From Deltaproteobacteria bacterium (lineage in GTDB: Bacteria > Desulfobacterota > GWC2-55-46): a stretch of 64,000 nt of DNA. Both the position numbers and the translations under genes were made by a program. Below are positions 1,855-54,620 of this stretch, in pieces (position 1 is the stretch's first letter; every line of letters begins with the position of its first letter). The stretch is from positions 187,005 to 251,004 of the forward strand of contig JACOUO010000014.1 of assembly GCA_016177845.1 (NCBI GenBank). Reading direction: 5' to 3'. The notes beneath the pieces were generated by a model. The model saw nothing but the letters and a program-made list of their open reading frames with translations. It did no database searches and was not told the origin of the DNA.

Positions 1855-2225
1855 ATATTTAAGTTAGCTCAGTGCTGTTTTAATAACGCCCTTGGTATTT
1901 GCCTCACGAAAGGGGGCAGTCCAAAATCTTTGATACTGGATTCCCGATAGGGACATTCGGGAATGACAGCTTGATTAGAGGGAGGGAGAGAGCGGGGCAT
2001 CAGTATCTATTAGTGAAAAAACACGCGACAGCGAACGGAGCCAATGCCCCGAGGAGCGAACCCGCAGTTCGCAAAAGTAAATAAGCAAACCGCTTTCTTT
2101 AAGTTTATATCCGGTGGGCACATCCCACCCTTTGATACTGGATTCCCGATAGGGACATTCGGGAATGACAGCTTGATTAGAGGGAGGGAGAGAGCATTAT
2201 AGGGCGGGTTGGCCCACCGAACGGC
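1855..2225. repeat. mosaic intergenic repeat block (modules A, B, C-tail and D)
   Basis: The ~76-bp unit tactggattcccgatagggacattcgggaatgacagcttgattagagggagggagagagc occurs twice (1937-1996 and 2134-2205). Between them is a B-module copy (ttgcgaactgcgggttcgctcctcggggcattggctccgttcgctgtcgcgtg, reverse-complement orientation). A ggtgggcacatcccacc palindrome is at 2113-2130. A fragment of module C (gctcagtgctgttttaa) is at 1866-1885. Confidence 0.8.
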
Positions 2226-8759: not shown

Positions 8760-9735
8760 GTCTGATTTATATAACCCCTCACCCCAGCCCTCTCCATAGG
8801 TCTGAAATCAACTAACACCCCTAATTAAACCGTCATTCCCGAATGTCTTAATCGGGAATCCGGTATTTAGAGTAATTGTAGGGCGCGGGCTATGCCTGCC
8901 GTGGTGCTAATTTTCTTTTGCGAACAGCGGGTTCGCTCCTCGGGCGTTGGACTCTGTTCGCTGTCGAGTTCGTTCGCTAATAGATACTGACGCTCGCTCT
9001 CGCCCTCCTTCTAATCAAGCCGTCATTCCCGAATGTCTCTATCGGGAATCCAGTATTAAAGATTTTGGACTGTTCCCTTTCATTGGGAAAATACCAAAGT
9101 TCGTCATTGTGAGTCAGTGCCTTTTTTACTTTTGCGAACAGCGGGTTCGCTCCTCGGGGCATTGGACTCTGTTCGCTGTCAGGCTCATTCGCAATAGATT
9201 TCGAACTCTCTCGCTCTCTCCCTAATCAAGCCGTCATTCCCGAATGTCTCTATCGAACTGCGGGTTCGCTCCTCGGGGCATTGGACTCTGCTCGCTGTCA
9301 GGCTCATTCGCAAAAAATACCGATACCCGCTCTCTCCCTCTCCTTTATGCTCTCTGCGCAATGCCCCTTGGTGTGGTGTTTTAAAACAAAATTCAAAACA
9401 GAACAGAAAAAGAATTTTTTTTATTCTTTGTTTTTTAAAAACCCCGAGGGCGCAAATGGCGAAGCATCCCCTAAGGGAGGCAGGGCGAGCGAGCCGAGGC
9501 TGCGGGAGCGCAAGCGACTTAAGAGGCGAAGCAAGCGGATTGGGGAGGAGCGGGATGGCGAGCCATTCGCCCGAAAAAGCCCGGCAGGGCGTTAAAGTTA
9601 AAACAGCACTGAGCTGGCTGTAATACTCTTCTCAATCTGAGCTTTTCTGCTGCGCAATGCCCTTGGTGTATTTTAAAAAAACAAAAATACCAAAAAAATT
9701 CACTCCTGATGGTGAATATGGAGAGAGGGAGAATC
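8760..9735. repeat. mosaic intergenic repeat block (~1 kb)
   Basis: Three copies each of module A (cctaatcaagccgtcattcccgaatgtctctatcgggaatccagtatt; 8818-8870, 9013-9062, 9222-9256) and module B (ttttgcgaacagcgggttcgctcctcggggcattggactctgttcgctgtc; 8914-, 9122-, 9255-). One full ~185-bp module C (9435-9625). Module F (ctctgcgcaatgccccttggtgtggtgttttaaaaca; 9350- and 9645-). ORF-track entries here are artefacts of the repeats. Confidence 0.85.
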
Positions 9736-13699: not shown

Positions 13700-14300
13700 T
13701 TAATTTTACACTTCTTTTATTCTGCTTTTGTACCCTGTCTTGTTTTAAAAACATCACATGACATAGTCCCCGTCAAAAGACCGCTCGCCCTGCCTTCCTT
13801 AGGGGATGTTCGCATTTGCGCCCTCGGGGTTTTGTAAAAACAAAATACAAAAAAGATTGCCTCGTCGCTTCGCTCCTCGCAATAAATATATTTTTCTTCC
13901 CATCTTGTAGGAGAATTTAAAAAACAGATTGCTTCGCTCCGCTCGCAATGACAATATTGGTAATCGTCATTCCCGCGAAAGCGGGAATCCAGTATTTCAG
14001 TTTCTGGATTCCCGATAGAGACATTCGGGAATGACGGCTTGATTAGGAGGAGGGCGAGAGCGAGCGTTAGTATCTATTAGCGAACGAACTCGATAGCCGG
14101 GAGCCAATGAACCGAGGAGCAAGCCCAGCGAAAAGTAAATAAGCAAACCGTTCTTTTAAGATTATATTTGGTGGGCACAGCCCACCCTACAAATAAAACT
14201 ATTTTCGCTTTTTGGCGCTTGTGGGAAGGGGAGGGGGATTTTAAAGGCTCAAAATCGCAAATTCCACCCTGTTTAAGCCCCCATTTCCTCAAACCATACC
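13700..14300. repeat. mosaic intergenic repeat block
   Basis: Module C in reverse orientation (13790-13860). Modules A in inverted tandem (gtcattcccgcgaaagcgggaatccagtatttcagtttctggattcccgatagagacattcgggaatgac; 13962-14035). Module B reverse complement (14055-14150). Module D ggtgggcacagcccaccctacaa (14170-14195). Confidence 0.85.
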
Positions 14301-23559: not shown

Positions 23560-24230
23560 TTCCTCCGCATTCATCCGCTAACGGATGCGCTAAGGTCATT
23601 TTAATAAAGAATTCGGAATATTTCCATATAAAAAATAAGGGGATAGGAAAAAGGTTGTGAAATCCACCCTTCTTCCTAATCAAGCCGTCATTCCCGAATG
23701 TCTCTATCGGGAATCCAGTATTAAAGATAGGAGCGAAGCGCCAAGGCAATCTTTCTTGTGTTTTGCCTTACAAAACCCCGAGGGCGCAAATGGCGAAGCA
23801 TCCCCTAAGGGAGGAAGGGTGAGCGAGCCGAGGCTGCGGGAGCGTAAGCGACCTAAGAAATGAACCGAGCGGATTGGGGAGGCGCGGGGTGGCGAGCCAT
23901 TCGCCCAAAAGAGCCCGGCAGGGCGTTAAAGTTAAAACAGCACTGAGCTGACTACATATTTTCTTTCCCTATTCTTGTCTTTAAAGCCTGCCGCTGTGCT
24001 TTTCTACTTTTGCGCGCCGGGCCTGCTCCTCGTGGCATTGGCTCCGTTCGCTGTCGCGTTTGTTCGCTAATAGATACTGAAGCCCGCTCTCTCCCGCTCC
24101 CTTATGCTCATTTCGCAACGCCCCTTGGCGTGGTGTTTTAAACAAGACAAAATAGAAATACAAATACTTCCCCCTCCCTTGATGGGTGGGGATAAAGGGG
24201 AGGGTGATTTAAGTACCAAAAAACAAAAAA
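23560..24230. repeat. mosaic intergenic repeat block
   Basis: Module A (23678-23730), full module C (23765-23955), module B (24000-24090), module F (24105-24160) and module E cccctcccttgatgggtggggataaaggggagggtga (24170-24215). Confidence 0.85.
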
Positions 24231-26581: not shown

Positions 26582-26599
26582 TATTCGAGGTTGAGACAT

Positions 26600-27637
26600 A
26601 TGGATAATAAAAAATACGCATTCATTACAGAAAAAGATTTTAAAGGTCTTGTTACCGGTCTTATCAAGGAATATAAGGTATTCGGGACCATAAAAAAAGA
26701 CGGTTTTCCGGCTTTTGCCGGTATTACCTCATTTGACGAACTCGAGCTTTTCCAGTCTCCCACCCACCTCTCGGCAAAAGAATTCCTTTTCCCGCAGAGG
26801 GAAACACTCCTTAAATTCAATATTCAGAATAAGACCCATGAGCCTGTGATAGAATCAGGGGAACAGGTCATTATAGGCATGCATTCCTGCGACATTCACG
26901 CGCTTACGCTCATGGACAGGGTCTTTGCCGCAGGCACGCCTGACCCGAACTATCTTTCAAGGAGAGCCAAGACCATTATAATAGGAACGGAATGTTTTCC
27001 CGATAAGTTCTGTTTCTGCAAGAGCGTGGGCACAATGACTGTGGAGGAGGGCTTTGACATCTTCCTTCATAAGCTGAAAAAAGGCTTTCTTGTGAGGACA
27101 GGGTCTGTAAAAGGTGAGGAGATACTTTCAAGGCTTACAAAATCCCGCCCTGCCGCCTTCAAAGAGATAAAAGAGGTTGAGGCTCTTCAAAAGGTAAAAG
27201 AGGGCTCCTTTATTACGACTTTGGATGCCCCTGCCGAGGAGCTTCCGGGCATTTACGAAAAGAGCGATAACAGCCCTGTCTGGGACAGGATTGGGGCTAT
27301 TTGCTACGGGTGCGGCTCGTGCAACCATGTTTGCCCCACATGCTACTGCTTTGATATCAAAGATGAGGTAAAGGCAAATCTTAAAGAAGGCGAGCGCGTA
27401 AGGGTTTGGGACGGCTGCATGGTTGAGGACTTTGCCAAGGTAGCGGGCGACCACAACTTCAGGGGTTTGAGGGCAAACAGGCTTAAGCACCGTTTTAACA
27501 GGAAATTCAGATATTTAACCGGCAAATTCGACGCCCTCTTCTGTGTCGGTTGCGGACGCTGTTCAAGGACATGCCTTGTAAACATCAATATCGCGGAAAT
27601 AACAAATGAACTTATACGAGAACATAATAAAAAATAA
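26600..27637 (+). CDS. 4Fe-4S dicluster protein, AsrA / sulfhydrogenase-beta (HydB)-like
   Basis: Two ferredoxin-like motifs, CYGCGSCNHVCPTCYC and CVGCGRCSRTCLVN. The ~345-aa length matches anaerobic sulfite reductase subunit A and hydrogenase beta-subunit homologues. Confidence 0.7.
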   Translation: MDNKKYAFITEKDFKGLVTGLIKEYKVFGTIKKDGFPAFAGITSFDELELFQSPTHLSAKEFLFPQRETLLKFNIQNKTHEPVIESGEQVIIGMHSCDIHALTLMDRVFAAGTPDPNYLSRRAKTIIIGTECFPDKFCFCKSVGTMTVEEGFDIFLHKLKKGFLVRTGSVKGEEILSRLTKSRPAAFKEIKEVEALQKVKEGSFITTLDAPAEELPGIYEKSDNSPVWDRIGAICYGCGSCNHVCPTCYCFDIKDEVKANLKEGERVRVWDGCMVEDFAKVAGDHNFRGLRANRLKHRFNRKFRYLTGKFDALFCVGCGRCSRTCLVNINIAEITNELIREHNKK

Positions 27638-28466
27638 TAATCATACAGAGACGCCCTCTCCATATGTGCCTGTCATGGGCACGGTTGAACGGGTAACGAG
27701 GGTTACGGAGCACGAGAGGCTCTTTGTAATCGCCCCTTCAAACAAAGAGCTGCTCAATTACTGTCCGGGCCAGTTCTACATGGTCGGGCTGCCGGGCTAT
27801 GGCGAGGCCCCTATCTCAATCACATCAGGGCCGGGGCAGGAGAAGGAATTCGAGTTTTGCATAAGGGCTGTGGGCAATGTGACAAATGCCCTGCACAGGC
27901 TCAGGAAAGGCGATACTGTCTTTATCAGGGGGCCTTTTGGCACAGGCTTTAATCTGGAAGAGATGAAAGGCAAGGACATATTATTTGTTGCCGGAGGTAT
28001 CGGCATAGTTCCCATGCGCTCTCTCATTAAGGCAGTTCTTAACGATACAAAAAGCTATGGCAGGCTCTCGCTTATATACGGCTCAAGAAACCCTGATGAC
28101 ATCCTCTACAAAGAAGAATTTGAGGAGTGGAAGGCAAAAGGGCTTGATATGCGCCTTACGGTCGATAAGCCCCACCCGACCTGGAAGGGCAATGTCGGGG
28201 TCGTCACCACCCTTATTCCAAAGATAGAAGTTGACCCTGCAAGGACAATCGGCGTGATTATCGGCCCGCCTGTGATGTATAAATTTGTAATCCTCTCATT
28301 CAGGGATAAAAAGATAACGGATGATAAGATTTTCGTATCGCTTGAAAGAAGGATGAAGTGCGGGGTAGGCAAGTGCGGACATTGCCAGATAAACAGTTCC
28401 TATGTGTGTCAGGAAGGCCCTGTTTACAGGCTTAAAGACCTGCACAGTTTGCCTGAAGCGATATAA
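27606..28466 (+). CDS. FAD/NAD(P)-binding oxidoreductase with a C-terminal 2Fe-2S cluster, AsrB / PyrK / HydG-like
   Basis: Ferredoxin-reductase-type FAD and NAD folds plus the C-terminal CGVGKCGHCQ 2Fe-2S motif. Overlaps the preceding gene by 32 nt, suggesting an operon. Confidence 0.7.
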   Translation: MNLYENIIKNNNHTETPSPYVPVMGTVERVTRVTEHERLFVIAPSNKELLNYCPGQFYMVGLPGYGEAPISITSGPGQEKEFEFCIRAVGNVTNALHRLRKGDTVFIRGPFGTGFNLEEMKGKDILFVAGGIGIVPMRSLIKAVLNDTKSYGRLSLIYGSRNPDDILYKEEFEEWKAKGLDMRLTVDKPHPTWKGNVGVVTTLIPKIEVDPARTIGVIIGPPVMYKFVILSFRDKKITDDKIFVSLERRMKCGVGKCGHCQINSSYVCQEGPVYRLKDLHSLPEAI

Positions 28467-28493
28467 ATATTAATTAAAATATAAAATCAAAAA

Positions 28494-28525
28494 CGGCTGT
28501 CGAGAAATTCGGCAGCCGTTTTTTG
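28494..28525 (+). terminator. rho-independent terminator
   Basis: CGGCTGTCGagaaattCGGCAGCCG followed by ttttttg. Confidence 0.75.
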
Positions 28526-28529
28526 ATAT

Positions 28530-29135
28530 GGACGCCCTGAGCCGTCATTGCGAACGGAGCGAAGCAATCCTTTTATTTATTCCCCTCACTTCTACCCTCT
28601 CAAACTGTCCAATAGATTGCTTCGGGCTTAACGCCCTCGCAATGACGACATCTCACCCGTTTCCCGAATGTCACTATCGGGAATTTACTTTTAAAATACT
28701 GGATTCCCGCTTTCGCGGGAATGACAATTCTAAACCTGTCATTGCGAGCGGAGCGAAGCAATCCTTTTATTTATTCCCCTCACTTCTACCCTCTCAAACT
28801 GTCAAATAGATTGCTTCGGGCTTAACGCCCTTGCAATGACGACATCTCACCCGTCATTCCCGAATGTCACTATCGGGAATTGACAATTCTAAACCAGTCA
28901 TTGCGAGCGAAGCGAGGCAATCCTGTTATTTATTCCCCTTACTTCTACCCTCTCAAACTGTCAAATAGATTGCTTCGGGCTTAACGCCCTTGCAATGACG
29001 ACATCTCACCCGTCATTCCCGAATGTCACTATCGGGAATCTACTTTTAAAATACTGGATTCCCGCTTTCGCGGGAATGACAATTCTAAACCAGTCATTGC
29101 GAGCGAAGCGAGGCAATCTGTTTTATTTACTCCCG
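28530..29135. repeat. tandem array (~3.3 copies) of a ~160-200-bp composite structured repeat
   Basis: The unit gtcattgcgagcgaagcgaagcaatcc..(70 nt)..gattgcttcgggcttaacgccctcgcaatgacgac contains nested long-range inverted repeats (gtcattgcgag/ctcgcaatgac and cgaagcaatc/gattgcttcg). Each unit is followed by module-A-type hairpins (cattcccgaatgtcactatcgggaat and ggattcccgctttcgcgggaatgac). Unit starts are near 28537, 28737 and 28897. Confidence 0.85.
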
Positions 29136-29136
29136 C

Positions 29137-29667
29137 CTACGCCTCTCTCCCTGTCTGTATCTTAAACTCCCTCCAGACATAATCGAGGCCTGAATACACG
29201 GTAACAACCGCAGTTACGAGTGTAAGCCAGTCAAGGCCGAAGTTGAAGGGGATAAGCATGGCGTAGATTACTGTGGTTATCTGGAGGGCTGTAGTGAGCT
29301 TGCCGAAGAAAGACGGGGAGATGATGACCTTTTTACCTGCGCCTTTTAATGTGAAAAAGCCGGTAAGGATAACGGCATCCCTTACGATTACAGGAACGCA
29401 CAGCCATATCGGGAGAAACCCTTTAAGAGTAAGCGAGAGGTAAGCGGTAACAAGCAGGAGCTTGTCCGCGAACGGGTCCATGTGGGCGCCGAATTCCGTT
29501 CTCTGGTTGTAAGTGCGTGCGATAAAGCCGTCTATGCCGTCTGTAATGCCTGCGATGGCGAAGACGATTGTTGCATAGAAGAGCTGGTTTTCAAGGACGA
29601 GCAGCAGGAATACCGGAACAAGCAGTATCCTGAATATAGTCAATATGTTTGGAACATTCAAGACCAT
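29137..29667 (-). CDS. pgsA: CDP-diacylglycerol--glycerol-3-phosphate 3-phosphatidyltransferase
   Basis: CDP-alcohol phosphatidyltransferase motif DGxDGxxAR...G...DxxxD (DGIDGFIARTYNQRTEFGAHMDPFADK) and multiple TM helices. Confidence 0.85.
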   Translation of the reverse strand: MVLNVPNILTIFRILLVPVFLLLVLENQLFYATIVFAIAGITDGIDGFIARTYNQRTEFGAHMDPFADKLLLVTAYLSLTLKGFLPIWLCVPVIVRDAVILTGFFTLKGAGKKVIISPSFFGKLTTALQITTVIYAMLIPFNFGLDWLTLVTAVVTVYSGLDYVWREFKIQTGREA

Positions 29668-35340: not shown

Positions 35341-37077
35341 TTACAGGTTTTTAAGGCGTTCCACTTCCCTTTCGGTCAGCATCCTGTACTGGCCGGGCTC
35401 AAGGCTTCCAAGCTTTATTCCAGCGAACTCAACTCTCTTAAGCTTTATGACAGGGTGTCCTATTGCCTGACACATCCTTTTGACAAGCCTGTTCCTGCCC
35501 TCTATTACGGTAATCTCTATCCAGGAGTTCTCCTGAGTTTCCTTTACAAACCTTGCCCTTGCAGGCAGAGTCCTTCCGTCCTCAAGGTAAACCCCGCGTT
35601 CCAGCTTCTCAATGTCTTCCCTCTTAGGCACATCCTTGACCTTTACAAGGTACTTTTTAGGGACTTTGAAGTTCGGGTGGATGAGCTTGTTTGAAAGCTC
35701 GCCGTCATTGGTAAGAAGTATTACCCCTTCGGCATCATAGTCCAGCCTGCCAATGGGATAAACCCTTTCCTTTGTATTGACAAGGTCGGTCACTACCTGC
35801 CTGTGAAGCGGGTCAGTAACCGCGCTGATGCAATCCTTTGGCTTATTTAAAAGTATATAGACCTTTGGCCCTTTGAACGAAATGAGCTTTCCGTCAACCG
35901 CTATCCTGTCCTTGAACGGGTCTGCTTTTGCCCCGACCTCAGTAACAGTATGGTTGTTTACGGTTACTCTGCCCTGAGTTACAAGCTCCTCTGCCTTTCT
36001 TCTGGATGTGATACCGGCAGCGGAGATGATCTTTTGAAGCCTTTCCTCATGCCCTTCCTCCAGATGGCGTGCAGGCTGTGGGGTTTTAGACCTTCTCGGC
36101 CTTGCTGGCCTCTGGGGCCTTTCCGACCACTTGGGCTTATCTGAACCCTCAGGTCTTTCAGGCCTTTCAGTCCCTTCAAAACGCTTCGGTCTTTCAGGCC
36201 TTTCTGACCTCTCAAACCTCTTAGGCCTTTCGCTTCTTTCCGATCTCTCAGGCCTCTCAAACCTTTGCGGCCTTTCGGGCCTTTCGGTTCTATTTGGCTT
36301 GTCAGTTCCTTCAAAACGCTTCGGTCTTACAGGCCTTTCCGACCTCTCAAACCTCTTAGGCCTTTCGCTTCTTTCAGATCTCTCAGGTCTCTCAAACCTT
36401 TGCGGCCTTTCCCGTCTTTCGGTTCTCTCGGATGACGACCAATCAAACTTTTTCTTTATCTGGTCTGTCCTCTCCCTCGTCTCCGATTCCTTCCTCGGGT
36501 ATCTCCTCGGAGCGTCCTGTGAGGCTCTCTCGTCCTTCTTCCAAGGCTTCTTCCTCAGTTCCTTCTGTGAGGTCTTCCCCTCCGGCCTCCAGACCAGAGT
36601 CCTCTCCCTCGTCTCCGATTCCTTCTTCGGGTATCTCTTCGCAGTGTCCTGTGAGGTCCTCTTCTCCCTGTTCCAGGATTGGTTCTTCTCCGAGTCCCTC
36701 CGGGTAGTCCTCTCCTCCGGCTTCCAGGACTGAGTCCCCTCCCTCGTCTCCGAGTTCCTCCTCGGATATCTCTTCGGAGCTTCCTCTGAGGGGTTCTCCT
36801 CCCTCTTCTTCCAAGGCTGGCTCCTGATGTTCTTCTTCATATCCATCCGGGAAGTCTTCTCCTCCGGCCTCCAGGACTGAGTCTTCTCCCTCGTCTCTGA
36901 TTGCCTCCTGGGACGGCCTTCCCTGTTCGGACGACCTTCCGTTCTCGGACGGTCCTCCCTCCTGTTCCTGTTCTCCTGCGCCCTCTTCTGATTCGGGCGG
37001 GTTTTGGGCGGCATTTTCTTCCTCCATTTTCTGTAAATCTTTAAGGCTCGGCAGGCACGAGAGGTCTTTAAGATCAA
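35341..37077 (-). CDS. rluB: RluB/RsuA-family pseudouridine synthase with an S4 domain and a long Arg/Glu-rich low-complexity N-terminal extension (start unresolved)
   Basis: The core (from about 36070 downward) has the S4 domain (ERLQKIISAAGITSRRKAEELV) and the pseudouridine synthase catalytic region (GRLDYDAEGVILLTNDG). There is no ATG, GTG or TTG in frame between the scpB stop (36443) and the S4 domain. The frame is open upstream to 37077 through the GA-rich repeats, in the +1 frame relative to scpB. Confidence 0.6.
   Translation of the reverse strand: MILKTSRACRALKIYRKWRKKMPPKTRPNQKRAQENRNRREDRPRTEGRPNREGRPRRQSETREKTQSWRPEEKTSRMDMKKNIRSQPWKKREENPSEEAPKRYPRRNSETREGTQSWKPEERTTRRDSEKNQSWNREKRTSQDTAKRYPKKESETRERTLVWRPEGKTSQKELRKKPWKKDERASQDAPRRYPRKESETRERTDQIKKKFDWSSSERTERRERPQRFERPERSERSERPKRFERSERPVRPKRFEGTDKPNRTERPERPQRFERPERSERSERPKRFERSERPERPKRFEGTERPERPEGSDKPKWSERPQRPARPRRSKTPQPARHLEEGHEERLQKIISAAGITSRRKAEELVTQGRVTVNNHTVTEVGAKADPFKDRIAVDGKLISFKGPKVYILLNKPKDCISAVTDPLHRQVVTDLVNTKERVYPIGRLDYDAEGVILLTNDGELSNKLIHPNFKVPKKYLVKVKDVPKREDIEKLERGVYLEDGRTLPARARFVKETQENSWIEITVIEGRNRLVKRMCQAIGHPVIKLKRVEFAGIKLGSLEPGQYRMLTEREVERLKNL
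36130..36900. repeat. GA-rich coding tandem repeats (2 x ~123 bp at 36130-36430; ~3 x 130-147 bp at 36460-36900)
   Basis: Direct reading of the sequence. The repeats encode ~44-49-aa acidic repeats in the ScpB tail (EGEDSVLEAGGED...EEIPEEGIGD) and R/E/P repeats (ERPERSERSERPKRFERSERP) in the rluB frame. Confidence 0.8.
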
Positions 37078-40179: not shown

Positions 40180-40740
40180 CTCCCCTCCCTTGATGGGAGG
40201 GGATAAAGGGGAGGGTGAAAGTGAAAAAACCTCACTCCAGCCCTCTCTCTCGTCAGTCGTCATTCCCGAATGTCTCTATCGGGAATCTACTTAAAAATAC
40301 TGGATTCCCGCTTTCGCGGGAATGACAGATTATGGAATAATCTATCTGTGAGAACAGAGCGAAGCAATCTATTTTCTTCACCTCCTGCGCCATCGGGGGT
40401 TTTAAGAACAAAAACTAAATTCTTTTATTCTGATTTTAGATCTTGTCTTGTTTTTAAAACACCACACCAAGGGGCATTGCGTAGAGAGCATAAAGGAGAG
40501 GAAGAGAGCGGGAATTAGTATCTGTTAGCGAACGGAGTCCAATGCCCCGAGGAGCGAACCCGCTGTTCGCAAAAGTAAAATAGCAGAAGCGTTAATAGGC
40601 AGAGGAGTTGATGAGTTTGCTTCTCGCAACTGGCCAAGCAGTCGTCATTGCGTACTTGAAGTAATCTGTCTTTGCTGGGAGGAAATAAAGGGGAGGGTGA
40701 TGCAGTCAGTGCAGGGATTTCAGCCCTGAGCAACCCGCTT
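40180..40740. repeat. mosaic intergenic repeat block
   Basis: Module E at 40185-40230 and 40670-40710. Module A pair at 40255-40330 (gtcattcccgaatgtctctatcgggaatctacttaaaaatactggattcccgctttcgcgggaatgac). Module F and module B in reverse complement at 40455-40585. Confidence 0.85.
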
Positions 40741-44374: not shown

Positions 44375-44620
44375 CTAATCTTTTTGCGAACTGGGTTCGC
44401 TCCTCGGGGTATTGGCTCCCGGCTACCGAGTTCGTTCTCTAATCAAGCCGTCATTCCCGACTGTCTCTATCGGGAATCGAGTATTGTAGTATTTTAGTAT
44501 TGTAGAGTGGGCTGTGCCACCAAATGTTCTTATAAAAGAGCGTTGTTGCTAAAAACAAGACAGAATACAAAATATTTCCCTCCTTTATCGGGATGATAAA
44601 GGGAAGGGTGAAAAGTGAAA
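44375..44620. repeat. mosaic intergenic repeat block
   Basis: Module B (44385-44440), module A (44440-44480), a module-D-like palindrome (44500-44520) and module E (44575-44615). Confidence 0.8.
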
Positions 44621-53739: not shown

Positions 53740-54620
53740 TCTGTTTAACTTCCTCCCTTAATGGGACGGGATAAATGAGAGAGGGAGAAAAATATTGCAG
53801 GGTGGGCTGTGACCACAGAATCTAATCTCAAAAGGTGTTTGTGCTGATTTACTTTTACGCCGGGCTTTAACTCTTCGGGGTATTGGCTCCGTTAGCTGTC
53901 GAGTCCGTTCGCTAATAAATACGAATGCCCGCTCTCTCCCTCTCCCCTGATCAAGCCGTCATTCCCGAATGTCTCTATCGGGAATCTACTTTTAAAATAC
54001 TGGATTCCCGCTTTCGCGGGAATGACAATTACTAAAACCTGTCATCGTGGGCAGGGCAAAGCAATCTGTTTGTCCCCCTCACCCCCAACCCTCTCCCACA
54101 AGGGGAGAGCTGGGAGCGACGCGAGAAGGCAATCGTTAATATTTTGTCTTTATAAAACCCCGAGGGCGTTAATGGTGCGTAAGGGAGGAAGGGTGAGCGA
54201 GCCGAGGCTGCGGGAGCGTAAGCGACCTAAGAAATGAACCGAGCGGATTGGGGAGGAGCGGGGTTGCGCATCCATTCGCCCGAAAGAGCCCGGCAGGGCG
54301 TTAAAGTTAAAACATCACAGAACTTCAAAAAAATGAGACTTGCAGTAAAGCGTTGTTGTTTATTAACTTTTGCGAACAGCGGGTTCGCTCCTCGCGGCAT
54401 TGGACTCCGTTAGCTGTCGAGTCCGTTCGCTAATAAATACCAATGCCCGCTCTCTCCCTCTCCTTTCCTTTATGCTCTCTGCGCAATGCCCCTTGGTGTG
54501 GTGTTTTAAAAACAAGACAGAACAAACAGAATCTGTCATTGCGAGCAAAGTGAAGCAATCTGTTTTTCATTTAGTATCCCCCTCCCTTGATTGCAAGGAG
54601 ATAAAGGATATGGGTGAGCT
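53740..54620. repeat. mosaic intergenic repeat block
   Basis: Module E-like (53745-53790), module D-like (53800-53820), module B (53858-53940 and 54365-54450), module A pair (53942-54030), module C (54160-54320) and module F (54470-54525). Confidence 0.85.

Follow-up and report, generated by a model that had tools for sequence, protein, structure and literature searches.

The subject of this analysis is a 64-kb window (64,000 nucleotides of contig JACOUO010000014.1, assembly GCA_016177845.1, forward-strand positions 187,005 to 251,004), and within it a tandem array of short inverted repeats in one intergenic spacer. The proteins of the window belong to a metagenome-assembled genome (MAG) deposited at NCBI as "Deltaproteobacteria bacterium" (MBI1912198-MBI1912204). 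The spacer is 670 nt long and separates two convergent genes. On the left, an asrB-like gene for a FAD/NAD(P)-binding Fe-S oxidoreductase (27606-28466, + strand; Pfam NAD_binding_1, DHODB_Fe-S_bind and FAD_binding_6; NCBI "FAD/NAD(P)-binding protein", MBI1912198.1) is preceded by the gene of an asrA-like Fer4_22 protein (26591-27637) and followed by the intrinsic terminator of this asrAB-like operon (28489-28525, + strand), with a 15-bp stem (28489-28523, 93% complementary), a 5-nt loop and a T-run. The terminator is conserved in the closest relative discussed below (locus L242, AsrB 98% identical). On the right lies pgsA, coding for CDP-diacylglycerol--glycerol-3-phosphate 3-phosphatidyltransferase (29137-29667, - strand; Pfam CDP-OH_P_transf; NCBI name, MBI1912199.1). 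The array, delimited by unit alignment and repeat finding, occupies positions 28542-29135. It is a mosaic of oriented hairpins, and we argue that it probably represents a cluster of motifs related to those of the small GIY-YIG nucleases called Ssn.

Homology between the units of the array begins at about 28542-28544, approximately 17 nt past the T-run of the terminator (and not 4 nt after it, as the initial annotation of this DNA had it), and stops at 29135, 1 nt short of the pgsA stop codon (29137-29139). Unit alignment resolves three full composite units of 194, 159 and 196-197 nt and a partial fourth, represented by its B module; the units are 94-100% identical to one another. TRF reports a period of 159 nt with 2.0 copies, 96% identity and a score of 606, and a repeat search finds three 159-nt copies at a spacing of 194 and 159 nt together with a 108-nt pair 355 nt apart. 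The tandem array, its composite unit and the nested inverted repeats (GTCATTGCGAG...CT(C/T)GCAATGAC around CGA(A/G)GCAATC...GATTGCTTCG in the unit alignment), all of which had been noted from the sequence beforehand, are present far beyond chance. The unit of ~190 bp in 3.3 copies proposed at that time stands as far as three full units and a partial fourth are concerned, but its period is uneven. Unit 2 lacks a 35-nt piece carrying the A2 hairpin, with the deletion ending at a repeated GGGAAT, and the two module-A hairpins ascribed to each unit are found in units 1 and 3 only. A protein-coding reading of the array was discarded, as its ORF (open reading frame) at 28528-28809 (+) has no Pfam match and NCBI lists no gene between MBI1912198 and MBI1912199. 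The same applies to other ORFs of 92-104 aa lying wholly inside repeat arrays of the window (8947-9225 and 9281-9595, both + like the first): none has a Pfam match and they are almost certainly spurious.

The array is not one structured unit of ~190 nt. Its 594 nt are a mosaic of 12 hairpins, all oriented and belonging to four types: four B5', three B3', three A1 (one of them decayed) and two A2. B5' (GTCATTGCGAGCGRAGCGARGCAATC) and A1 (GTCATTCCCGAATGTCACTATCGGGAATC) are read on the + strand, B3' (GTCATTGCRAGGGCGTTAAGCCCGAAGCAATC) and A2 (GTCATTCCCGCGAAAGCGGGAATC) on the - strand. B5' and B3' face inward across a 45-nt AT/pyrimidine-rich core and form module B; A1 and A2 face inward across a 16-nt AT-rich spacer and form module A. 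Unit 1 is composed of B5' copy 1 (28544-28569, +; GTCATTGCGAACGGAGCGAAGCAATC), the pyrimidine-rich core (28570-28614, +; repeated at 28764-28808 and 28923-28967; GC content 0.36-0.38 against 0.53-0.58 in the flanking hairpins), B3' copy 1 (28615-28646, -; minus-strand sequence GTCATTGCGAGGGCGTTAAGCCCGAAGCAATC), the decayed A1 copy 1 (28659-28686, +; GT--TTCCCGAATGTCACTATCGGGAATT, with CA of GTCAT and the 3' C lost) and A2 copy 1 (28699-28726, -; minus-strand sequence TGTCATTCCCGCGAAAGCGGGAATCCAG). Unit 2 contains B5' copy 2 (28738-28763, +), B3' copy 2 (28809-28840, -; one base different from copy 1) and A1 copy 2 (28853-28881, +; GTCATTCCCGAATGTCACTATCGGGAATT), and unit 3 contains B5' copy 3 (28897-28922, +), B3' copy 3 (28968-28999, -), A1 copy 3 (29012-29040, +; the A1 sequence given above) and A2 copy 2 (29054-29081, -). 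The truncated fourth unit, B5' copy 4 with 17 nt of B core (29093-29135, +), abuts the pgsA stop codon.

All four types share a single grammar, GTC-ATT[stem-loop]AAT, which is kept in 11 of the 12 copies on alternating strands; the exception is the decayed A1. The base following AAT is C in ten of these 11 copies and T in one A1. The four substitutions separating hairpin copies all lie in loops, although they are too few for statistics. GC content forms a wave along the array, 0.45-0.58 in intact hairpins and 0.17-0.38 in most spacers; the exceptions are a 12-14-nt linker after each B3' (GACATCTCACCC, 0.57-0.58) and a 17-nt lead-in before the first hairpin (0.65). With CRISPR loci the array shares regularly spaced, partially palindromic repeats, but its "spacers" are themselves repeated, the hairpin orientation alternates, and neither a leader nor cas genes are present; the earlier view that it is unlike CRISPR is borne out.

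One of the four types is already known from another organism. The Neisseria Transformation Sequence (NTS), CGTCATTCCCGCGMAVGCGGGAATCYRG, contains the 20-bp dRS3 (ATTCCC-N8-GGGAAT) and is the target of SsnA, a 94-aa single-domain GIY-YIG protein assigned to cd10448 (Chenal et al. 2025, Nat Commun, PMC11893778). SsnA binds NTS only as single-stranded DNA (ssDNA), not as double-stranded DNA or RNA, and cuts it a few nucleotides upstream. For cleavage the three bases preceding the palindrome are critical, and for binding the C that follows it; in Neisseria the enzyme restricts the integration of NTS-bearing transforming DNA (PMC11893778). Thousands of Ssn homologs exist across phyla, each flanked by its own Ssn-related motifs (SRM), and an Ssn is encoded in 81% of the genomes in which SRMs number above 200 (PMC11893778). 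A 2026 preprint already treats SsnA-associated repeats as a standard class of repeats.

The window was scanned with the three patterns of PMC11893778: NTS with at most one mismatch to CGTCATTCCCGCGMAVGCGGGAATCYRG, dRS3 with no mismatch to ATTCCC-N8-GGGAAT, and the SRM regular expression HGTCWYN(0-2)YYVSBRHN(0-5)WNVSBRGN(0-2)RNCYNB. A2 is NTS, with 0-1 mismatch at five window sites, all five being exact dRS3 and SRM matches. Each of the two array copies (28699-28726 and 29054-29081, both -) carries one mismatch, and the exact NTS match is found at 13965-13992, one of three A2 copies outside the array. Since the host is a "Deltaproteobacteria bacterium" MAG and not a member of Neisseriaceae, the A2 of the array is an SRM resembling NTS and not the actual Neisseria element. 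The positions that SsnA needs for cleavage and binding are those kept in the array hairpins: the GTC 5' flank in 11 of 12 and the 3' C in 10 of 12. The initial annotation had suspected a recognition mark of some enzyme in the shared GTCATT, and this agrees with our result, as GTC(A/T)(C/T) is the oriented 5' flank of the published Ssn-related motif and is present in all four types. The enzyme had been imagined as a mobilising one, which is not supported, because the associated family is a GIY-YIG ssDNA endonuclease, shown to cut DNA and not to mobilise it.

The similarity extends from single hairpins to their arrangement. Neisserial intergenic mosaic elements (NIMEs) are composed of dRS3 hairpins flanking RS elements and are clustered in arrays with GC peaks at hairpins and troughs in spacers; their array length differs between meningococcal strains and, as stated in 2007, they were not seen in non-neisserial genomes (Bentley et al. 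2007, PMC1797815). The array described here likewise has ATTCCC-N8-GGGAAT hairpins with short repeat segments of lower GC content between them, shows the GC wave, is intergenic, and differs in length between close relatives (670 nt of spacer against 237 nt in the 98% relative). Unlike NIMEs, it lies outside Neisseria, only 2 of its 12 hairpins are strict dRS3, its inter-hairpin segments are shorter (12-45 nt), and in it one composite unit recurs in regular tandem, where NIMEs combine many RS families in a mosaic.

The array does not stand alone. A search for further copies, carried out within the 64-kb window, showed the same modules at many sites: array included, there are 12 sites of A1, 5 of A2 and 6 of B5'. 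A general scan for GTCAT heads with a stem of 5 bp or more behind them gave 35 sites, where 4.8 would be expected and where 100 first-order Markov simulations never gave more than 10; about 25 of the observed sites fall in the four families and the remainder look like chance. Some dispersed copies are composites of the same build as the array unit. The copy at 13918-14037 (-), composed of A1, A2 (NTS), linker and B5' in ~117 nt, is 84-85% identical to 29010-29124, the one at 53956-54071 (+) has the same order with a decayed B5' (90% identical), and at 40258-40360 (+) A1 and A2 (NTS) are again followed by a decayed B5'. All mapped clusters of the families are intergenic and located beside housekeeping genes, without consistent orientation to those genes.

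Two other kinds of repeats accompany the hairpins in the window. A repeat family of ~110 nt, which we call C (TTTTGCGAACAGCGGGTTCGCTCCTCGGGGCATTGGACTCTGTTCGCTGTC...GCTAATAGATAC...CTAATCAAGCC), usually leads straight into an A1 hairpin; it is found at 1907-2195 (-), 8821-9340 (+), 14007-14097 (-), 24025-24095, 40527-40585 (-), 44382-44408, 53883-53986 and 54367-54460, is itself arrayed in tandem at ~1.9-2.2 kb and ~8.8-9.3 kb, and contains internal inverted repeats GCGAACAG / CTGTTCGC with no match in Rfam. Pyrimidine-rich tracts CCCCTCAC...CCCTCTCC are often situated beside hairpins (54060-54110, 8780-8830, 40230-40258 and the module-B cores). The tract at 54,070-54,110 is followed by the complementary GGGGAGAG and may be another hairpin family.

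In other genomes, hairpins of these types are found around small GIY-YIG genes. The B5' 26-mer GTCATTGCGAGCGNAGCGARGCAATC, which is exact in array copies 2-4 and one base off in copy 1, occurs at at least 120 loci in many phyla, with hosts including Bradyrhizobium, sphingomonads, Desulfomonilaceae, Chloroflexi, Planctomycetota, Hymenobacter, Fibrobacter, Omnitrophota, Bacillota and Legionellales. At two of these loci (L021, L066) a ~95-aa GIY-YIG gene (PF01541) is placed between inward-facing B-type hairpins, and at L278 tandem B modules stand on both sides of the GIY-YIG gene. An inward-facing partner is present for 96 of 143 B5' hairpins (67%) in other genomes, and the resulting elements mostly measure 74-86 nt, so that module B appears to be a discrete miniature element; the 105-nt module of the window is at the long end of this range. 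The A1 pattern was found in at least 120 metagenome contigs. On one of them (L134) the A1-spacer-A2 module lies as in the array, ~45 nt upstream of a GIY-YIG gene, on another (L130) a related A1/A2 pair brackets the gene, and L245, L247 and L250, the closest homologs of the L134 protein among the matches listed, have arrays of A1/A2 pairs on both gene sides. At L248 a canonical NTS precedes the GIY-YIG start codon by 6 nt. The B-A1 junction, and with it the composite unit as such, had no match in the reference-genome collection, the metagenome collection having been scanned for A1 only. The flanked proteins were recognized by Pfam PF01541, size of ~95 aa and single-domain architecture rather than by cd10448 membership as such. 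NCBIfam has no specific model for them, and a PDB search with the L134 nuclease returned only distant UPF0213/SLX1 GIY-YIG matches and no solved Ssn structure.

An independent sample of 27 ssn-like genes, fetched from IMG/VR by protein similarity, gave the same picture from the side of the gene: a GTCAT hairpin with a stem of at least 6 bp lies within 200 nt of 24 of the 27 genes and on both sides of 16, with few hairpins further out. Of the three apparent exceptions, one (L278) is in fact flanked by B modules. Clustering of ORFs within 300 nt of hairpins at 240 loci left GIY-YIG as the sole small, specific recurrent family. The hairpin-gene-hairpin layout, with identical hairpins around ~95-aa single-domain GIY-YIG genes, is that known for ssnA, and high copy number, intergenic position and clustering are further traits common to the array families and the NTS/SRM-Ssn system, in addition to the A2 type with its 0-1 mismatch to NTS and to the GTC and palindrome of 11 copies, followed by C in ten. 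What sets the present case apart is its deltaproteobacterial MAG host, the fusion of at least two hairpin classes in one tandemly amplified unit, and the gene content and three deviating hairpin types of the window, to which we return below.

Some of these loci deserve mention in their own right. At L184 (positions 1-1115, Ga0208045_1001030) a tandem array of at least nine composite units of 123 nt, each composed of an A1 hairpin (-), a GTCATCCCC(G/T)C-type hairpin (+) and a 45-nt spacer, presents a larger analogue of the window array; L129 (3291-4691) is similar. In an Omnitrophota MAG (L072, 3900-4500) the GIY-YIG gene is flanked by another hairpin class, GTCATYCTGAG...GAAGRATC, in which the GTCAT head and ATC tail are constant and the stem sequence changes with the nuclease. 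In a Planctomycetota MAG (L021, 4900-5560, CAYWBA010000025.1) a hairpin-ssn-hairpin unit is located between duplications of ~93 nt, seemingly of the pheT 5' end (LNVSYNWLKELVEFDLTPEELAQKLTFLGLE). This insertion seems to have carried or regenerated the start of its target gene, which could hint at an insertion mechanism or be an artefact of MAG assembly. Many of the closest homologs of the L134 protein among the matches listed are on contigs shorter than 2 kb, consistent with flanking hairpins breaking short-read assemblies.

The same data bear on the question whether the modules are repetitive extragenic palindromic (REP) sequences, bacterial interspersed mosaic elements (BIMEs) or classical miniature inverted-repeat transposable elements (MITEs), moved by a RAYT/IS200-type Y1 or a DDE transposase, with the GIY-YIG link being incidental. 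The architecture is similar: both modules end in inverted repeats (GTCATTCCCG...CGGGAATGAC in A, GTCATTGCGAG...CTCGCAATGAC in B), measure 75-105 nt, are intergenic and multi-copy, and cluster into BIME-like mosaics. Like REPs, they are short oriented palindromes, able to appear as ssDNA hairpins in inverted pairs and mosaics, of a kind that elsewhere flanks a dedicated small enzyme gene; like the Correia elements (CREE) among MITEs, they are non-coding modules with terminal inverted repeats. Despite this, no transposase family, RAYT included, recurs among the ORFs within 300 nt of hairpins at the 240 loci, where GIY-YIG does, and 24 of the 27 ssn-like genes have these hairpins in their flanks. 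The neighbours of clusters in the window are housekeeping genes (in the part of its ORFs scanned against Pfam), and the dispersed copies show no evident target-site duplication. REP elements have a GTAG-type head, unlike the conserved GTCAT 5' flank, and the enzyme is of the GIY-YIG nuclease fold as opposed to the HUH/Y1 (IS200/IS605-like) transposase fold of RAYT. In contrast to CREE, each terminus is a hairpin with an oriented flank, and no DDE transposase is associated. A transposase-borne origin is on these grounds very unlikely. The array had initially been described as unlike simple REP elements. It is not without parallel among known repeats, being close to the NIMEs of Neisseria and, more loosely, similar to clusters of REPs and BIMEs.

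Another possibility is that the unit encodes structured non-coding RNA, the ~105-nt two-level hairpin and smaller ones, carried on a read-through transcript from asrB or pgsA. The whole array folds well as RNA (z = -9), module B as ssDNA reaches -17.9 kcal/mol (z = -4.6, + strand), and the C->T changes in B3' of units 2 and 3 as well as the A->G changes in B5' of units 3 and 4 would leave G-U wobbles on the + strand. The ~105-nt module does fold significantly better than shuffled sequence. The "110-nt two-level hairpin" of the initial annotation is one possible fold only, and each of its ends is itself an oriented hairpin. As both ends follow one grammar on opposite strands, recognition at the DNA level is indicated rather than a structured RNA: the oriented motif GTCATTGCGAG...GAAGCAATC is present on both arms of the long hairpin, something that an RNA helix does not need. 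Rfam scans, at the gathering threshold as well as permissive, gave no credible match to this array or to the array at 8.7-9.45 kb, and at the gathering threshold no tRNA, rRNA or other family was detected anywhere in the 64-kb window. A canonical terminator stands directly upstream; between B hairpins the interior varies in length and sequence across genomes; dispersed copies occur in every orientation relative to flanking genes; and the nuclease family found beside the hairpins has in SsnA of N. meningitidis a characterised member that binds no RNA. The array copies, being 94-100% identical and having arms that are inverted copies of one motif, are too alike for a real covariation test. Taken as a whole, we regard an RNA gene as highly improbable.

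Local folding of ssDNA supports the smaller hairpins. A2 (29052-29084, the copies being identical) reaches -9.0 kcal/mol with z = -5.6, A1 (copy 2, 28851-28882, with the same stem as copy 3) -7.0 kcal/mol with z = -3.0, and B3' (copy 2, 28808-28842) -7.2 kcal/mol with z = -3.4. If an SRM is a 20-50-nt inverted repeat forming an ssDNA hairpin, then A2, A1 and B3' qualify by their z values and B5' does so weakly. The centre of B5' is a GC-GNA-GC mini-hairpin between GA/GA(A) internal loops; motifs of the d(GCGAAGC) type are unusually stable in DNA, and B5' may profit from this.

Comparison with relatives, in which the synteny of asrAB, pgsA, miaA and mutL is conserved, reveals a lineage-specific expansion. 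Where the window has the array in a spacer of 670 nt, the closest relative (L242, AsrB 98%) has a 237-nt spacer in which an A1, a B3'-like piece and a B5' are all decayed, the last abutting pgsA in the same position as array B5' copy 4. The spacer of a second relative (L243, AsrB 70%) is 300 nt long and contains an NTS-like hairpin and a truncated one, and that of a third (L244, AsrB 69%) is 244 nt long and without hairpins. The tandem amplification therefore appears recent, as the 98% relative has single decayed copies and the 69% relative none, while the hairpin content of L242 and L243 indicates that hairpins as such are old residents of the asrB-pgsA spacer. A strain 100% identical to the window (L001, short-read assembly) has the same sequence until a break inside the first B module, a sign that the repeat disrupts assembly.

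This break, together with the origin of the window from a metagenome-assembled contig and units of 159-197 nt that are 94-100% identical and near read length, raises the possibility that the modules are real and the array collapsed, expanded or chimeric. Substitutions and the 35-nt indel nevertheless tell the units apart and allow a unique assembly path, arrays of like or larger size were assembled in unrelated data (L184, L129, L245, L278), and L242 was assembled straight through the locus with its different, non-amplified content. We hold such an artefact to be unlikely; it could touch the copy number and not the existence of modules. The number of ~3.3 copies, unverified and taken from a short-read MAG, is provisional.

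The position between two convergent genes invites the suggestion that the hairpins act mainly as terminators or insulators between asrB and pgsA, a co-opted role that would be compatible with the Ssn link. On the - strand A2 has an 8-pair stem with CCAGTATTTT after it and scores like a terminator; the first site of this sort (A2 copy 2) is ~60 nt downstream of the stop codon of pgsA, which has no other terminator. Terminator-like sites are not enriched, with 2 found against 1.5 expected from shuffles. One hairpin would be enough for the purpose; such a role does not explain why there are 12, in four types, or why copies are also dispersed to intergenic regions of divergent and tandem genes. 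There is little likelihood that termination is the main role of the array, though A2 may serve secondarily as a transcription terminator of pgsA.

The reading which in our opinion probably accounts for these observations is that Ssn-related hairpin motifs form an intergenic, NIME-like cluster here, and that the array is an element acting at the level of DNA and not an RNA gene. By analogy with the characterised enzymes of Neisseria, N. elongata, N. wadsworthii and Wolbachia, its working may be imagined as follows. The hairpins would extrude when either strand becomes single-stranded during replication, repair or DNA uptake, and a cognate Ssn nuclease of ~95 aa, encoded elsewhere in the genome, would bind them. 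It would need the palindrome and the following C to bind and would cut a few nucleotides 5' of GTC. Because hairpin orientations alternate, both strands carry sense sites. The modules may be gene-less derivatives of hairpin-ssn-hairpin units that would have travelled with these nucleases, both within the genome and from phylum to phylum. The composite B+A unit would then have been amplified approximately threefold in this lineage by unequal recombination or slippage between repeated modules. The presence of an Ssn enzyme in the source genome, its cutting of array sites and any effects on recombination or DNA uptake are suggested by this analogy. Extrapolated from the window (5 NTS and 12 A1 per 64 kb), the density would make this one of the genomes in which SRMs exceed 200.

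Several points weigh against this reading. No GIY-YIG ORF, and hence no ssn gene, was found in the 64-kb window with a loose GIY...YIG regular expression, with phmmer from two sequences or with a hidden Markov model built from three hairpin-flanked GIY-YIG proteins, and no match labelled as coming from the source MAG was among the best 120 of more than 7,900 homologs of the L134 protein. The published SRM pattern (PMC11893778) is matched by A2 only. A1, B5' and B3' miss it on account of a longer loop (9 nt in A1) or an ATTGC-type stem with internal loop (B5', B3'); they still have in common with it the GTC(A/T)(C/T) head, a palindrome and a C on the 3' side. These A1- and B-type variants are candidate rather than characterised Ssn targets. 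Two A1 copies have T in place of the 3' C, one of them also being short of part of GTCAT, so that some sites of the array are probably inactive. The local B5' hairpin is no stabler than shuffled sequences (-2.7 kcal/mol, z ~0, nearest-neighbour DNA parameters), and the predicted minimum-energy fold is the long-range pairing of B5' with B3'. Mobility driven by Ssn was raised only as a hypothesis in PMC11893778 and never demonstrated.

A bolder version is conceivable, in which the composite unit is a chimeric non-autonomous element with recognition hairpins for two different co-resident Ssn nucleases, one for the ATTCCCG class (A1/A2) and one for the ATTGCGAG class (B). Nicking of the extruded hairpins by Ssn and subsequent template switching would both mobilise the hairpin pairs and let the array grow. 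We consider it rather doubtful. If true, Ssn and SRM would constitute a real ssDNA-based mobile-element system comparable to that of RAYT and REP, and the B class would be a pan-bacterial hairpin family overlooked by the published SRM search pattern.

The repeat class to which the array is assigned has already been described as the Ssn hairpins (NTS/SRM), and the array is not a new kind of element. Modestly new are a NIME-like array, regular and amplified in tandem, beyond Neisseria, the joining of two hairpin classes within a single unit, and evidence that ssn-like genes are bracketed by the ATTGCGAG "B" class and by A1 with its long loop, although both escape the published SRM pattern. Under the reading we prefer, the array and the many GTCATT-type hairpins of the window would be explained as part of the recently discovered system of Ssn nucleases and hairpin repeats, and arrays in NIME style, long held to be a peculiarity of Neisseria, would be present in an uncultured deltaproteobacterium as well. 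The long-loop A1 and the ATTGCGAG/GAAGCAAT "B" class, bracketing ssn-like genes in many phyla, may represent new cleavage specificities among ssDNA nucleases, which are of biotechnological interest. In practical terms, repeats of this kind break short-read assemblies and yield spurious ORFs.

The window also contains repeats of quite another sort. The ORF at 35900-37077 (-) includes dense coding tandem repeats at 36144-36951, with periods of 9, 36, 45 and 135 nt, and a C-terminal S4 domain. The syntenic gene of relatives encodes S4 and PseudoU_synth_2 domains, and the product looks like an RluB-like pseudouridine synthase with a low-complexity repeat extension.

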